DNA of 4,447 bases. Source: a virus (taxonomy: Duplodnaviria > Heunggongvirae > Uroviricota > Caudoviricetes). The number at the start of each line of letters is the position of its first letter. Within the stretch, counting starts at the first letter, position 1. Positions 1 to 4,447 of this stretch are shown piece by piece. A program made the translations under genes and the position numbers. The stretch lies in IMG/VR virus record IMGVR_UViG_2778261170_000007. One strand, written 5' to 3'. Under the pieces are notes generated by a model, which was given only the letters and a program-made list of their open reading frames with translations, did no database searches and had not been told where the DNA came from.

Positions 1-471
1 CCCGTTCCGTGGCCCTTAGAAACACCACCAACGGGCTGGCTAAAATGTAACGGAGCAGCATTTTCTTCTGAAAAGTATCCCAAACTGGCAAAAGCCTACC
101 CCACCAATAAATTACCGGATTTACGGGGAGAATTTATTCGCGGTTGGGATGATGGGCGCGGGGTGGATGCTGGCCGCGCTTTGCTTAATTGGCAGCCACA
201 CACAATTTTGGACCATGCACACTATATGGAATTATGGACAGGGGACGGACTCGCCGCAGGAAGTGCACGGGAAGGCGTAAATCCAGGAATACTAGCTACA
301 TACGGTGACGGGGGAATAGTTAAAACGGACGAACCCGGTCATAAGGTGCCTTCCTCACTACGAGCTATTAGCTCTCGTAGTGTTAAACGTTATGGTGAAA
401 TTAGTGGAAATGTAGGTACAGAAACTCGCCCTCGCAACGTTGCATTTAATTACATCGTAAGGGCGGCATAA
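1..471 (+). CDS. Tail-fiber tip / receptor-binding cassette A (tail-collar domain family), 5'-partial at window edge
   Basis: Frame 1 is open from nt 1 to TAA at 469-471. Translation PVPWPLETPPTGWLKCNGAAFSSEKYPKLAKAYPTNKLPDLRGEFIRGWDDGRGVDAGR...ETRPRNVAFNYIVRAA carries the tail-collar signature (P-x-GW-x-C-NG, LPDLRG-F-RG-D-GRG). HAH motif at 214-222. Nucleotide-identical in reverse complement to 3977-4447. Confidence 0.8.
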   Translation, partial: PVPWPLETPPTGWLKCNGAAFSSEKYPKLAKAYPTNKLPDLRGEFIRGWDDGRGVDAGRALLNWQPHTILDHAHYMELWTGDGLAAGSAREGVNPGILATYGDGGIVKTDEPGHKVPSSLRAISSRSVKRYGEISGNVGTETRPRNVAFNYIVRAA

Positions 472-483
472 AAACGTTGGTTT
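1..483. repeat. Left arm of a perfect >=483-bp inverted repeat (pairs with 3965-4447); truncated by the window edge
   Basis: Position x on the + strand equals the reverse complement of position 4448-x. Identity ends at 484 (g versus a), immediately after the conserved junction spacer. Confidence 0.85.
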
Positions 484-495
484 GGGGGAAGGCTC
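456..495 (+). repeat. Conserved 40-bp inter-cassette junction (candidate recombination/crossover site), A-B
   Basis: CGTAAGGGCGGCATAAAAACGTTGGTTTGGGGGAAGGCTC: last codons of one cassette, TAA, a 10-nt non-coding spacer AAACGTTGGT, and the first codons of the next. The identical 40-mer recurs at 3027-3066 and 3466-3505 on the minus strand. Confidence 0.5.
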
Positions 496-943
496 TGCAC
501 TGCCCGTTGGTGTGCCCGTTCCGTGGCCCTTAGAAACACCACCAACGGGCTGGCTAAAATGTAACGGAGCAGCATTTTCTTCTGAAAAGTACCCAAAACT
601 GGCAAAGGCTTACCCTACTAATAAATTGCCGGATTTACGCGGTGAATTTATTCGTGGCTGGGATGACGGACGTGGTGTGGATGCCGGGCGACAATTATTA
701 TCTTCACAGGGGGATGCAATAAGAAATATTGAGGGGTTCGCAGATGGCGGGATTGGCATGTCTTTTGATGCAATCAGAGGGGCTTTTTATGATGCAGGAA
801 CACGATCAGCGAGAATGCCGAATAACACAACTACTATAGACAAAACCGATGACCTTGGATTCGACGCCTCTCGTGTCGTGCCAACAGCTAATGAAAACCG
901 TCCTCGTAATATTGCCTTTAATTACATCGTAAGGGCGGCATAA
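482..943 (+). CDS. Tail-fiber tip / receptor-binding cassette B (tail-collar domain family)
   Basis: ORF with a TTG at the conserved module start (482) and TAA at 941-943. N-terminal block of subtype A (PLETPP, YPKLAKAYPTNK), a unique variable core with no HxH, and the conserved C-terminus ENRPRNIAFNYIVRAA. No ATG or convincing Shine-Dalgarno, so the true start is uncertain. Confidence 0.75.
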   Translation: MGEGSALPVGVPVPWPLETPPTGWLKCNGAAFSSEKYPKLAKAYPTNKLPDLRGEFIRGWDDGRGVDAGRQLLSSQGDAIRNIEGFADGGIGMSFDAIRGAFYDAGTRSARMPNNTTTIDKTDDLGFDASRVVPTANENRPRNIAFNYIVRAA

Positions 944-967
944 AAACGTTGGTTTAGGGGAAGGCTC
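928..967 (+). repeat. Conserved 40-bp inter-cassette junction, B-C (variant with TTA in place of TTG)
   Basis: Differs from the 456-495 junction by one substitution (TTG to TTA); identical to the minus-strand junction at 3953-3992. Confidence 0.5.
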
Positions 968-983
968 GGCGCTGCCCGTTGGC

Positions 984-1451
984 GTGCCTGTTCCATGGCC
1001 CTCAGCCACACCTCCAACGGGGTGGCTGAAATGCAATGGTGCAGCATTTTCTTCTGAAAAGTACCCAAATCTGGCAAAGGTTTACCCAACGTTAAAATTA
1101 CCTGATTTACGCGGTGAGTTTATCCGTGGTTGGGATGATGGGCGAGGGATTGACTCTGGTCGCTCTATTTTAAGCGAGCAAGGATATGCAACGGAGGATC
1201 ATGCTCACGGATTACCGTCAAAATCAACCGTAGCAACTGACCGCTCAATTAATTTCTACTTTGACGAGGCATGGGCTACTAGTGGTAATACGGGAGTTAT
1301 CAGATGGGGGAACACAAGCGATGCAGGATTGCCAGCCCCTAATTATGGAACTTTTAAAACATATAAACAGTCCGTAGCTAATTTAGGTACTGCTGGCTTA
1401 GAAACCCGCCCTCGTAATGTTGCATTTAATTATATTGTGAGGGCGGATTAA
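984..1451 (+). CDS. Tail-fiber tip / receptor-binding cassette C (tail-collar domain family); conserved module actually begins at 954
   Basis: The conserved module start codon is TTA at 954-956 (TTG in other cassettes); the first possible start is GTG at 984. The frame is open from 933. Subtype-B N-terminal block (PSATPP, YPNLAKVYPTLK), HAH motif at 1200-1208, C-terminus ETRPRNVAFNYIVRAD, TAA at 1449-1451. Confidence 0.7.
   Translation: MPVPWPSATPPTGWLKCNGAAFSSEKYPNLAKVYPTLKLPDLRGEFIRGWDDGRGIDSGRSILSEQGYATEDHAHGLPSKSTVATDRSINFYFDEAWATSGNTGVIRWGNTSDAGLPAPNYGTFKTYKQSVANLGTAGLETRPRNVAFNYIVRAD
987..1147. repeat. Left arm of a 161-bp perfect inverted repeat (pairs with 2333-2493) in the conserved 5' block of cassette C
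   Basis: 10-mer by 10-mer comparison of 987-1147 with the reverse complement of 2333-2493 shows identity, bounded by mismatches at 986 and 1148. Confidence 0.85.
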
Positions 1452-1456
1452 TTATA

Positions 1457-2068
1457 TCAACTGGCTGTAGAAAGTTGTTTTTCAGGCCAGTTGAGATCTG
1501 GTGCCGTGGTTAAATCCATCGCGTTCAGCTCGTCTATATAATCTAGCACGGAGTTAAGCTGCGTGGTTTCTGCCTGCGTCAACTTCCGTCCAGCCCGTAA
1601 TTTCAACTGAATCAGACTAATGGAATCCATCGCAGTATCAATCAATGACTGACGTTTTGTTTCTGCTGCCTCTACAGCTGCACTATGTTGAGCCTCAGTA
1701 TCAACCACCCATTTCTCTCCATCCCATTTGTCGTATGGTGTTAGCGGGGCGATAGTGGTTGTATTTTCCGGATAGTCACCCAACACCGTGATTTCTTCGG
1801 GATTCCCAGTGTCAATGCTATAGACAGTTTCGCCACGATGATCTGGCACATACTCCCATGAACTTAAATCCTCTGAACGGAGAATCGCATAACCTGCTTT
1901 ATGTGAGCCTGGAGCATCCAAACAAGAATTTGCCGGAATACCAACGCCAACAGCAAGATATTCAGTTGATGCAGAAATATATTCCCGATTACCACCATCA
2001 TAGTTATAAACGATAATGTTTCCTGCCTGTATGGCTATAAGTTCGCTATTTAATATCGCATTATCCAT
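1457..2068 (-). CDS. tfa: Phage tail fiber assembly protein (Tfa; Mu U / P2 G / lambda Tfa-like chaperone)
   Basis: 203-aa ORF with a canonical ATG at 2066-2068 and TGA at 1457-1459. The C-terminal region ...KWDGEKWVVDTEAQHSAAVEAAETKRQSLIDTAMDSISLIQLKLRAGRKLTQAETTQLNSVLDYIDELNAMDLTTAPDLNWPE matches, from memory, the conserved C-terminal domain of enterobacterial tail fiber assembly proteins (DTEA..., STAPDIEWP-like end). Its start overlaps the stop of the upstream cassette (TAATGG), indicating translational coupling. Confidence 0.85.
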   Translation of the reverse strand: MDNAILNSELIAIQAGNIIVYNYDGGNREYISASTEYLAVGVGIPANSCLDAPGSHKAGYAILRSEDLSSWEYVPDHRGETVYSIDTGNPEEITVLGDYPENTTTIAPLTPYDKWDGEKWVVDTEAQHSAAVEAAETKRQSLIDTAMDSISLIQLKLRAGRKLTQAETTQLNSVLDYIDELNAMDLTTAPDLNWPEKQLSTAS

Positions 2069-2526
2069 TATGCTGCTCTCACAATATAATTGAAGGCAAT
2101 GTTACGTGGGCGGGTTTCATTCCCCCCAGATAACTCCGTTCTGTATTGACTGGTAAATTTACCATTAATCGCTCCTTCTTGGACGGCGTTATCTGTCGAC
2201 AACAGACTATCCCCCCCTCTGTCATTTGGCACCAATACCGTGTTATCCCACGCGTCCCATGACCGAATATTATGATAATGACTTCCTGTTAACCACCCCT
2301 GTATGCTTAAGATGACCCTTCCCGCATCCACACCTCGCCCATCATCCCAACCACGGATAAACTCACCGCGTAAATCAGGTAATTTTAACGTTGGGTAAAC
2401 CTTTGCCAGATTTGGGTACTTTTCAGAAGAAAATGCTGCACCATTGCATTTCAGCCACCCCGTTGGAGGTGTGGCTGAGGGCCATGGAACAGGTACACCA
2501 ACGGGCAGCGCCGAGCCTTCTCCCAA
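2068..2526 (-). CDS. Tail-fiber tip / receptor-binding cassette D (tail-collar domain family), coupled to tfa
   Basis: TTG at 2524-2526, TAA at 2068-2070 overlapping the tfa ATG. Subtype-B N-terminal block, HYH motif at 2272-2280, C-terminus ETRPRNIAFNYIVRAA. Confidence 0.8.
   Translation of the reverse strand: MGEGSALPVGVPVPWPSATPPTGWLKCNGAAFSSEKYPNLAKVYPTLKLPDLRGEFIRGWDDGRGVDAGRVILSIQGWLTGSHYHNIRSWDAWDNTVLVPNDRGGDSLLSTDNAVQEGAINGKFTSQYRTELSGGNETRPRNIAFNYIVRAA
2333..2493. repeat. Right arm of the 161-bp perfect inverted repeat (pairs with 987-1147) in the conserved 5' block of cassette D
   Basis: See the left arm. Together the two arms bracket 1148-2332, which holds the cassette C variable core, tfa and the cassette D variable core. 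Confidence 0.85.
2341..2439. repeat. 99-bp perfect direct repeat, copy 1 (cassette D 5' block); copy 2 at 2865-2963
   Basis: 2341-2439 is identical to 2865-2963 (atcatcccaaccacggataaactcaccgcg...aaaatgctgc); flanking sequence is similar but has substitutions. Confidence 0.8.
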
Positions 2527-2552
2527 ACCAATGTTTTTATGCTGCCCTTACG
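2513..2552 (-). repeat. Conserved 40-bp inter-cassette junction, E-D (most divergent copy, 3 substitutions)
   Basis: Minus-strand sequence CGTAAGGGCAGCATAAAAACATTGGTTTGGGAGAAGGCTC. Confidence 0.45.
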
Positions 2553-3040
2553 ATGTAATTAAAAGCAACGTTGCGGGGGCGCATTGATATCCATGCCCCG
2601 GTAAAATTATCCTCTGCCGTCCTTTGAGTACCCGTTATGGAGTTATCTGCTGATGCTGGAACATAATCGCTATTATCTCCTGCTTTAGGATTAGCAGGGT
2701 TTCCAACAGTTATAACAGAATCAGCAGTAGCATAAGCGATACCTACTTTGACATTAGTAGTCAGATCGACACCGTAATAATCCTGCAAAGCTGTACGAAT
2801 AAATGTTGCAGTCTGACCACTTAGCAATGAACGCCCTGTATCAATCCCTCTCGAATCATCCCAACCACGGATAAACTCACCGCGTAAATCAGGTAATTTT
2901 AACGTTGGGTAAACCTTTGCCAGATTTGGGTACTTTTCAGAAGAAAATGCTGCTCCGTTACATTTCAGCCACCCCGTTGGCGGTGTGGCTGAGGGCCATG
3001 GAACAGGCACGCCAACGGGCAGCGCCGAGCCTTCCCCCAA
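2537..3040 (-). CDS. Tail-fiber tip / receptor-binding cassette E (tail-collar domain family)
   Basis: TTG at 3038-3040, TAA at 2537-2539. Subtype-B N-terminal block, the longest variable core (about 81 aa, no HxH), C-terminus MRPRNVAFNYIVRAA. Confidence 0.75.
   Translation of the reverse strand: MGEGSALPVGVPVPWPSATPPTGWLKCNGAAFSSEKYPNLAKVYPTLKLPDLRGEFIRGWDDSRGIDTGRSLLSGQTATFIRTALQDYYGVDLTTNVKVGIAYATADSVITVGNPANPKAGDNSDYVPASADNSITGTQRTAEDNFTGAWISMRPRNVAFNYIVRAA
2865..2963. repeat. 99-bp perfect direct repeat, copy 2 (cassette E 5' block)
   Basis: Identical to 2341-2439. Confidence 0.8.
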
Positions 3041-3066
3041 ACCAACGTTTTTATGCCGCCCTTACG
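3027..3066 (-). repeat. Conserved 40-bp inter-cassette junction, F-E
   Basis: Minus-strand sequence identical to the 456-495 junction. Confidence 0.5.
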
Positions 3067-3479
3067 ATATAATTAAACGCAATGTTACGAGGACGAATGG
3101 TTACATAATTAACCCCATCACCTCGTGAAGGCCCTGCAAATGAAAAACGGGAAAATCCTGGTTGGTTAGAAACAATTTGGTCATAGTTATTGATTGAATG
3201 ACCAGACCCAATGTCGAAATTACCTCCGTAATGAGAAAAACTTGTACCATCCTGCCCTGAAAGCAGGGTACGTCCCGCATCAATCCCGCGCCCATCATCC
3301 CAGCCACGGATAAATTCACCGCGTAAATCCGGTAATTTATTGGTGGGGTAGGCTTTTGCCAGTTTGGGATACATTTCAGAAGAAAATGCTGCACCATTGC
3401 ATTTTAGCCAGCCAGTTGGTGGTGTTTCTAAGGGCCACGGAACGGGCACACCAACAGGCAATGCAGAGCCTTCCCCCAA
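3051..3479 (-). CDS. Tail-fiber tip / receptor-binding cassette F (tail-collar domain family)
   Basis: TTG at 3477-3479, TAA at 3051-3053. Subtype-A N-terminal block (PLETPP, EMYPKLAKAYPTNK), the shortest variable core (about 56 aa), C-terminus IRPRNIAFNYIVRAA. Confidence 0.75.
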   Translation of the reverse strand: MGEGSALPVGVPVPWPLETPPTGWLKCNGAAFSSEMYPKLAKAYPTNKLPDLRGEFIRGWDDGRGIDAGRTLLSGQDGTSFSHYGGNFDIGSGHSINNYDQIVSNQPGFSRFSFAGPSRGDGVNYVTIRPRNIAFNYIVRAA

Positions 3480-3505
3480 ACCAACGTTTTTATGCCGCCC
3501 TTACG
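3466..3505 (-). repeat. Conserved 40-bp inter-cassette junction, G-F
   Basis: Minus-strand sequence identical to the 456-495 junction. Confidence 0.5.
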
Positions 3506-3948
3506 ATGTAATTAAATGCGATATTTCGTGGACGGGTTTCACTCCCGCCAGTATTACCAATACTCCCTCGAGAATGAAGTGTCGGTGATGGAATCAAATT
3601 CCCTCCTGTATTTGAGGCATCAAGCCCCCGTCCTTGTGTGTATGTTTTTTTGAAAATTGTCGCCAGCTCCCATTCATCTTTTGTGTCGTAACCATCATTG
3701 GCTACAACAATATGTCGGTGCTTTTCCAGCATTCCTGTCTGAATGCTCAATAAAGCACGTCCCGCATCCACCCCGCGCCCATCATCCCAGCCGCGAATAA
3801 ATTCTCCCCGTAAATCCGGTAATTTATTGGTGGGATAAGCCTTTGCCAGTTTTGGGTACTTTTCAGAAGAAAATGCTGCTCCGTTGCATTTTAGCCAGCC
3901 TGTTGGCGGAGTGGCTGAGGGCCACGGAACAGGTACGCCAACAGGCAA
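3490..3948 (-). CDS. Tail-fiber tip / receptor-binding cassette G (tail-collar domain family); conserved module extends to 3966
   Basis: The conserved module start is TTA at 3964-3966; the first possible start is TTG at 3946-3948. TAA at 3490-3492. Chimeric N-terminal block (PSATPP of subtype B followed by YPKLAKAYPTNK of subtype A), HRH motif at 3712-3720, C-terminus ETRPRNIAFNYIVRAA. Confidence 0.7.
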   Translation of the reverse strand: MPVGVPVPWPSATPPTGWLKCNGAAFSSEKYPKLAKAYPTNKLPDLRGEFIRGWDDGRGVDAGRALLSIQTGMLEKHRHIVVANDGYDTKDEWELATIFKKTYTQGRGLDASNTGGNLIPSPTLHSRGSIGNTGGSETRPRNIAFNYIVRAA

Positions 3949-3952
3949 TGCT

Positions 3953-3992
3953 GAGCCTTCCCCTAAACCAACGTTTTTATGCCGCCCTTACG
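3953..3992 (-). repeat. Conserved 40-bp inter-cassette junction, A'-G (TTA variant)
   Basis: Minus-strand sequence identical to the 928-967 junction. Confidence 0.5.
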
Positions 3993-4447
3993 ATGTAATT
4001 AAATGCAACGTTGCGAGGGCGAGTTTCTGTACCTACATTTCCACTAATTTCACCATAACGTTTAACACTACGAGAGCTAATAGCTCGTAGTGAGGAAGGC
4101 ACCTTATGACCGGGTTCGTCCGTTTTAACTATTCCCCCGTCACCGTATGTAGCTAGTATTCCTGGATTTACGCCTTCCCGTGCACTTCCTGCGGCGAGTC
4201 CGTCCCCTGTCCATAATTCCATATAGTGTGCATGGTCCAAAATTGTGTGTGGCTGCCAATTAAGCAAAGCGCGGCCAGCATCCACCCCGCGCCCATCATC
4301 CCAACCGCGAATAAATTCTCCCCGTAAATCCGGTAATTTATTGGTGGGGTAGGCTTTTGCCAGTTTGGGATACTTTTCAGAAGAAAATGCTGCTCCGTTA
4401 CATTTTAGCCAGCCCGTTGGTGGTGTTTCTAAGGGCCACGGAACGGG
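3965..4447. repeat. Right arm of the perfect >=483-bp inverted repeat (pairs with 1-483)
   Basis: Reverse complement matches 1-483 on the blocks checked; the arm runs to the window edge and so probably continues beyond it. Confidence 0.85.
3977..4447 (-). CDS. Tail-fiber tip / receptor-binding cassette A' (inverted identical copy of cassette A), 5'-partial at window edge
   Basis: The minus-strand frame is open to the window end, with TAA at 3977-3979. The reverse complement of 3965-4447 equals 1-483; this was checked on 1-180, 177-246, 241-300, 308-427 and the 3' junction. Confidence 0.8.
   Translation of the reverse strand, partial: PVPWPLETPPTGWLKCNGAAFSSEKYPKLAKAYPTNKLPDLRGEFIRGWDDGRGVDAGRALLNWQPHTILDHAHYMELWTGDGLAAGSAREGVNPGILATYGDGGIVKTDEPGHKVPSSLRAISSRSVKRYGEISGNVGTETRPRNVAFNYIVRAA

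Follow-up and report, generated by a model that had tools for sequence, protein, structure and literature searches.

Known DNA inversion systems

The Min system of p15B, a plasmid of E. coli 15T-, was reportedly described together with its mix sites by Sandmeier, Iida, Arber and colleagues in 1990-1992, and since that work (1990) the biology of cassette inversion has been in the textbooks. In Gin, Hin and Cin, invertase dimers bound to two opposed sites assemble with a Fis-bound enhancer; 2-nt staggered double-strand cuts are followed by 180-degree subunit rotation and religation. The Cin/cix system of P1 and the Gin/gix system of Mu each comprise two sites, with two Sv-U sets as alternatives. 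Prophage Phi2 of E. coli EC958 hosts a simple two-site switch, located in the chromosome and featuring 197-bp inverted repeats, the inversion of which was seen directly in PacBio reads (PMC4134206). The PacBio-verified 3' crossover site of Phi2 is GAGAGATAAACG TT GGTTTGGGGGAA (PMC4134206, Table 3).

The window, i.e. the whole 4,447-nt stretch of DNA analysed here, very probably corresponds, on sequence grounds, to the inner part of a multiple-inversion region of the p15B-Min type, belonging to a P1-like phage-plasmid; crossover sites of the Din family (Gin/Cin/Hin/Pin/Min) would lie there within 40-bp repeats. The system is already known (p15B Min, Din family); the version seen here is larger, and has at least seven cassettes. 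A relation to the Gin/Hin inversion sites had been proposed in the initial annotation of the repeats; it is supported by the alignment of the sites, by the presence in related loci of an adjacent Gin-like serine invertase, and by natural isomers.

Organization of the window

The long ORFs of the window are of two kinds, C-terminal tail-fibre cassettes featuring the Phage Tail Collar domain and one tail-fibre assembly gene, tfa. Seven different cassettes (A to G), about 140-170 aa in length and devoid of the N-terminal repeats of the fibre, are organized in head-to-tail stacks, all oriented toward the central C-tfa-D segment (Table 1). Neither the invertase gene nor the constant part of the tail-fibre gene S is found within the 4,447 nt; both are seen in relatives only. 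The arrangement of the window is not found in one piece in any record of the plasmid, phage or E. coli genome collections. The modules obtained by cutting at the TT dinucleotides of the sites (472, 1581, 514, 439 and 487 nt, and the partial A) each have 100% identical copies elsewhere, set in different orders and orientations in other assemblies. The identical 167-aa cassette E is found in other plasmids beside the invertase, beside S, or at an internal position.

Table 1. Coordinates of the 40-mer copies, candidate crossover sites and coding modules of the window
Feature	Position	Strand	Remarks
40-mer copies	456-495, 928-967	+	0, 1 mismatches
40-mer copies	2513-2552, 3027-3066, 3466-3505, 3953-3992	-	3, 0, 0, 1 mismatches
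Candidate crossover site 1 (cassette A end / cassette B start)	465-490	+	core TT 477-478; GGCATAAAAACG-TT-GGTTTGGGGGAA
Candidate crossover site 2 (B / C)	937-962	+	core 949-950; right-arm variant GGTTTAGGGGAA
Candidate crossover site 3 (E / D)	2518-2543	-	core 2530-2531; most divergent, AGCATAAAAACA-TT-GGTTTGGGAGAA; base change adjoining the core
Candidate crossover site 4 (F / E)	3032-3057	-	core 3044-3045
Candidate crossover site 5 (G / F)	3471-3496	-	core 3483-3484
Candidate crossover site 6 (A' / G)	3958-3983	-	core 3970-3971; right-arm variant GGTTTAGGGGAA
Module A, tail-fibre C-terminal cassette	1-477	+	5'-truncated; ORF 1-471, stop 469-471
Module B, Collar-domain cassette	478-949	+	472 nt; ORF 482-943
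Central invertible segment	950-2530	both	1581 nt; cassette C + tfa + cassette D
Cassette C	ORF 984-1451	+	ends VRAD; no 3' site
tfa, tail-fibre assembly gene	1457-2068	-	Caudo_TAP
Cassette D	ORF 2068-2526	-	stop overlaps tfa start (ATG)
Module E, Collar cassette	2531-3044	-	514 nt; ORF 2537-3040
Module F	3045-3483	-	439 nt; ORF 3051-3479
Module G	3484-3970	-	487 nt; ORF 3490-3948
Module A', second, inverted identical copy of A	3971-4447	-	5'-truncated by the window end; ORF 3977-4447

Cassettes C and D, which flank tfa, lack a 3' crossover site, unlike all other cassettes. The C-tfa-D unit always moves as one piece of 1581 nt; a unit of equal length is present in each member of both isomer pairs described below, and 100% identical copies of it are found in three further related loci (L031-L033). 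A single tfa is thus available for seven or more cassettes, and lies inside an independently flippable segment.

Conservation of the junctions

The 40-mer CGTAAGGGCGGCATAAAAACGTTGGTTTGGGGGAAGGCTC is matched six times in the window, twice on the plus and four times on the minus strand, and chance matches were zero in 200 dinucleotide-preserving shuffles. As initially annotated, the six junctions occur in both orientations, and three are identical, two differ by one base and one by three. At each of them the stop codon of the upstream cassette is followed by seven bases and by the start of the conserved 5' block of the next cassette. The spacer between TAA (469-471) and the TTG at 482, listed as start of the next ORF, is 10 nt long (AAACGTTGGT), and is identical in five of the six copies.

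Alignment of the six junctions with their flanks reveals a peak of conservation of about 52 nt (relative positions -12 to +39), in which mean pairwise identity is 0.91-1.0, versus 0.73-0.89 in most of the neighbouring conserved coding sequence. A coding block located at about +113 to +132 (GCAGCATTTTCTTCTGAAAAGTA) equals the junction in invariance, and the junction is among the best-conserved stretches, not uniquely the best one. The view that a non-coding spacer is better conserved than the coding DNA around it, which had been taken as a sign of constraint at the DNA level, holds for the constraint and for most nearby coding sequence, but not for this block. The spacer is non-coding in silent copies only: once a cassette is fused to S, TT and the right arm of the site are translated (..NYLGLGEGS..). 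The GCAGCATTTTCTTCTGAAAAGTA stretch, about 20 nt long and encoding AAFSSEKY, is invariant in all window copies (569-591, 55-77, 1041-1063 and minus-strand equivalents), and features almost no synonymous variation in more than 100 related cassettes, in which neighbouring third positions vary freely.

Conservation of the junction as an expression signal (stop, spacer and TTG start), or as a terminator or hairpin, was considered and appears extremely unlikely. Each cassette is indeed annotated by pipelines as a 'phage tail protein' of its own, with the TTG of the right arm as start, and the site is an imperfect palindrome. The right arm is nevertheless translated in frame as a continuation of S, and the N-terminal repeats of the fibre are absent from the cassettes. 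No terminator-like site was detected by scanning any of the junctions, promoter-like hits were not above those in shuffled sequences, the RNA of the junctions does not fold better than shuffled sequence (z from -0.78 to +0.99), and no family was matched in an Rfam search.

Architecture of the crossover site

Each 40-mer includes a 26-bp candidate site, GGCATAAAAACG-TT-GGTTTGGGGGAA, made, as are the sites of the Din family, of two imperfectly inverted 12-bp half-sites separated by a 2-bp core, which is adjoined by an A-tract/ACC. The register AAAAC-GTT-GGTTT proposed earlier is one base off, the correct one being AAAACG-TT-GGTTTG (12-2-12). In annotated records, P1 cixR is TTATCCAATACC-TT-GGTTTAAGAGAA and cixL is CAATCCTAAACC-TT-GGTTTAAGAGAA, with the crossover annotated in TT in both, and Mu gix is TTATCCAAAACC-TC-GGTTTACAGGAA. 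When aligned on the central dinucleotide, the window site has the same register as cixL, cixR and gix, and shares the TT core with cix. Its right arm, read as reverse complement (TTCCCCCAAACC), is identical at 9/12 positions both to TTCTCTTAAACC (cix) and to TTCCTGTAAACC (gix). The resemblance to Gin/Hin sites, initially regarded as a weak match, is actually a good one, and extends to the Phi2 site, which has 22/26 bases in common with the window site, the core and complete right arm among them (PMC4134206). The internal left half-sites match the family consensus poorly (4-5/12), and differ from those of P1 and Mu in that they overlap the stop codon of the upstream cassette.

A scan for the right arm in 22 related loci and the window identified about 115 sites, in which the same right arm is joined at TT to three unrelated left arms. 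The first is the constant part of S (..GCGTTCTTAATTACC-TT-GGTTTGGGGGAA, S-side half-site TTCTTAATTACC), the second is found at cassette ends (..GGCATAAAAACG-TT-GGTTT..), and the third marks the fixed boundary beside the invertase (..GATTAAGACTAAAACG-TT-GGTTT.., half-site AAGACTAAAACG). A later census of 34 related loci and the window raised the number of sites to 198. Sites that recombine together share their core dinucleotide in the Din family, and the core is TT at 196 of the 198 sites, including all six in the window; the two exceptions both come from one record carrying homopolymer indel errors. Single-base homopolymer indels are found within several sites (GGTTTGGGG, AAAAAACG) of the related loci L017, L020 and L021, in which they break annotated cassette ORFs; they look like long-read sequencing errors, not real variants.

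Tail-fibre gene, invertase and backbone of related plasmids

The best matches to the window are 92-102-kb non-mobilizable plasmids of E. coli, Klebsiella and Salmonella, several of which are typed as IncY. In these relatives, which host up to 10 cassettes, the stack is flanked by P1 genes (R, gp16, baseplate, lydA/B, darA). In complete loci, the constant part of S, which encodes Phage_fiber_2 repeats (Pfam), borders the stack on one side, and the invertase gene on the other. The cassette next to S is fused to it in frame, and the resulting protein features Phage_fiber_2 repeats plus the Collar domain.

The protein encoded on the invertase side is 190 aa long, starts with MQIGYIRVSTNDQ, and includes Resolvase and HTH_7 domains. 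It matches the Gin structures 4m6f/3uj3 with E~1e-92, shows identities of 74% with Cin and 72% with Gin, and is publicly named DNA-invertase (UniRef Q05517_ECOLX). An adjacent serine invertase of about 190 aa, with the catalytic serine near residue 9-10 as in the Din family, is present in the relatives for which the invertase-side end was retrieved, the gene being split by an IS in L032. Identity to P1 is 80.6% in the part of the gene corresponding to the P1 enhancer as annotated, compared to 68.2% for nt 91-420 of the gene; this part may be a Fis-dependent enhancer acting in cis. At the offset corresponding to P1 31684-31754 the recombinase gene is identical to P1 at 59/71 positions (83.1%); in the P1 record, the same interval is noted as 83% identical to p15B.

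An R64-type shufflon, in which the tyrosine recombinase Rci acts at sfx sites, would be alike in logic, since both systems are clusters of overlapping invertible segments that swap the C-terminal ends of one protein, and overlapping inversions choose one of several such ends (PMC2481393). The recombinase in every complete relative is, in contrast, a small serine recombinase (Resolvase + HTH_7, Gin-like), no tyrosine recombinase was found among the called genes of the loci, and the site in the window has the 12-2-12 Din architecture. In sfx sites the core is 7 bp long, and the sequence is a different one. R64 differs also because the protein varied is a pilus adhesin and not a tail fibre. The window locus is not a member of the R64-type shufflons; the type of the recombinase excludes this reading, the likelihood of which is negligible.

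The closest described relative is p15B Min. The corresponding region of plasmid pMCR_SCKP-LL83 (locus L036) has 99% identity, over 92% coverage, to the p15B min region (PMC5786510), and the modules of the window are 94-99% identical to those of this plasmid. The P1-like backbone (seen in the relatives), the clustering of sites in both orientations, the adjacent invertase of the Din family, the joining of alternative 3' ends to a constant 5' part of the tail-fibre gene, the 59/71 identity of the recombinase gene, matching the p15B note of the P1 record, and the 240 isomers predicted by a six-site model are all as in p15B. As in Min, at least six sites in both orientations serve one variable tail-fibre gene, made of a constant 5' and alternative 3' parts. 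Identity in sequence to the p15B min region (X62121) is supported indirectly, by the published figure for L036, by the likeness of the window modules to those of L036 and by the note in the P1 record. Differences concern size: p15B has six sites, whereas the window has seven cassettes, with six internal and at least two terminal sites, the latter outside it, and relatives with up to 10 cassettes have thousands of possible isomers.

The window locus shares with P1 and Mu the 26-bp sites and their register, the Sc-Sv fusion logic and the tail-fibre operon context, but features many stacked cassettes and a single tfa in place of two alternative Sv-U sets. The invertase gene moreover points away from the invertible region (L001, 10043-10615), opposite to P1 cin (L025, 1161-1721), which points into the C segment and has its 3' end overlapped by cixL. 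Collar-domain cassettes are shared with Phi2, which differs for being a two-site switch in a chromosomal prophage.

Some relatives have unusual structures. Invertase-side left arms are found at both ends of the stack in L029 (7955-7999), where the S-type arm is missing. A 207-nt 'DNA invertase' fragment lies on the S side in L021 (9933-10139), and is possibly like the truncated second invertase gene described in p15B. The isomer of L032, the invertase gene of which is split by an IS (6044-7929), is presumably frozen. In L030, an IS1 is inserted within the stack (10235-10932).

Position of the exchange

Two K. pneumoniae plasmids from the same hospital (L023, L024), both 95,815 bp long, have flanking genes at identical coordinates, but differ in the stack. 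When cut at TT, the mobile segments of L024 are exact segments of L023, arranged in the order 0 / 5 / -4 -3 -2 -1 / 6 7 8. Segment 0, the fixed S-side flank, has four differences, which fall in the S repeats, outside the invertible stack. In a second pair (L035, L036), formed by plasmids of 97,393 bp, ten segments, accounting for 7,059 nt, correspond with zero mismatches when cut at TT; their order is 0 / -8 / 2 / -4 / -7 -6 -5 / 3 / -1 / 9, and 7/9 junctions are new. Plasmid p160070-MCR (NZ_MG288678) is an isomer, of the same length, of pMCR_SCKP-LL83 (MF510496, L036).

In both pairs the correspondence is exact only for cuts shifted by -1 to +6, i.e. made within TTGGTTT, a tract spanning positions 22-28 of the 40-mer and 477-483 of the window at the first site. 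Exchange is thereby mapped to 7 nt that contain the core, and not to the 2-nt core itself, from deposited assemblies that could be consensus sequences of mixed populations. To this resolution, the position agrees with exchange at the central dinucleotide, as in the Din family. The initial annotation had put forward the 40-mer as crossover site, and left to be settled whether breakpoints fall in it or in the rest of the conserved 5' block: natural isomers break and rejoin inside the 40-mer.

The same position emerges from the population. In 156 unique junctions, polymorphic columns from -39 to -1 follow the upstream cassette, the fraction explained being 0.67-1.0, with a maximum of at most 0.46 in permutations, which ignore relatedness among plasmids. 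Columns at +7 and beyond are linked to that cassette only at the level of the permutation mean, and the step falls between -1 and +7.

RecA-type homologous recombination between long conserved blocks, of which the 40-mer would be merely the best-conserved part, is a highly improbable origin of these rearrangements. The conserved blocks, of about 50 nt before the junction and 200 nt after it, are long enough for homologous exchange. Polymorphisms on the right side are linked to the variable part further downstream at 0.33-0.54 near the site, and at about 1.0 only at +200, which points to some exchange or conversion within the 5' block. Homologous recombination is not the main route because new junctions of both isomer pairs all fall within the same 7 nt, the left arms of S and of the invertase side exchange right arms though lacking homology to cassette ends, and no module has been lost between direct repeats in either pair. 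The single-step decay of linkage to the upstream cassette is similarly at odds with it. Exchange elsewhere in the conserved 5' block is accordingly dismissed as the main route, and retained as an additional process suggested by the population data.

According to the site-specific reading preferred here, one end of the stack would abut, outside the window, the constant 5' part of S, and the other the invertase gene. The invertase would pair any two opposed sites, cut both at TT, swap the ends and religate them. All the DNA between the two sites would be flipped, and a different cassette would be fused in frame to S (..NYL/GLGEGS..). By analogy to Gin, Hin and Cin, the cut at TT is expected to be staggered by 2 nt and followed by rotation of the subunits; a requirement for Fis, and for an enhancer located within the 5' part of the invertase gene, is predicted on the same basis. 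A new cassette on S may change the receptor-binding tip, and hence host range, as family knowledge suggests.

Site orientation and number of isomers

In all loci, the sites left of the tfa segment are oriented one way and those right of it the other, and each of the 198 sites of the census points toward the tfa segment. Isomers in both pairs keep equal length and every module. Lengths, modules and the orientation rule all indicate inversion only, as in the Din family, with no deletion between direct repeats. The direct repeats in the stack would be spared because of the topological requirement of the assembly formed by the invertase and the Fis-bound enhancer.

In a model allowing inversions between opposed sites only, L024 is obtained from L023 in 2 steps, and L036 from L035 in 4. 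The model yields 240 isomers for six sites, 10,080 for eight and 80,640 for nine. The figure of 240 is the one published for p15B Min (PMC2481393).

Window ends and further variation

The window is mainly a clean worked example of a known system. The sites are the switch points by which a P1-like phage-plasmid would choose among many receptor-binding tips and thereby gain access to different hosts. P1-like plasmids commonly carry resistance genes in E. coli and Klebsiella, hence the practical relevance of the switch. In annotation, silent cassettes are labelled as separate "phage tail proteins". In assembly, regions of this type can merge isomers, as suggested by the identical inverted ends of the window.

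Residues 1-483 are the exact reverse complement of 3965-4447, and the two ends diverge at 484/3964, where the right arm has its first polymorphic base. There are thus two copies of cassette A, one leading into B and the other into G. Cassette duplication is rare, being found in 2/34 related loci, and the relatives with 100% identical modules carry A once. Two isomers from a population in which inversion is active have probably, though by no means surely, been merged into the contig; if so, sites 1 and 6 are in use. A real duplication is the rarer alternative, and not the likeliest one.

Two additional layers of variation can be proposed only tentatively, and are on the whole unlikely. Homologous exchange or conversion in the Collar block of about 200 nt might generate mosaic cassettes. 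Flipping of the tfa segment might act as a second phase-variable switch, controlling the supply of the chaperone, or tfa might be transcribed from an unrecognised promoter on the invertase side. In the Collar 5' block (478-690 in the window, and equivalents in L001-L036), polymorphisms become fully linked to the variable part only at about +200, linkage dropping to about 0.4 at +7, a sign of mosaic 5' blocks arising by homologous exchange or gene conversion between cassettes. Judging from the layouts, tfa runs antisense to S in about 9/15 of the related loci in which both could be placed. In L024, S is fused to the C-type cassette, which is convergent with tfa.
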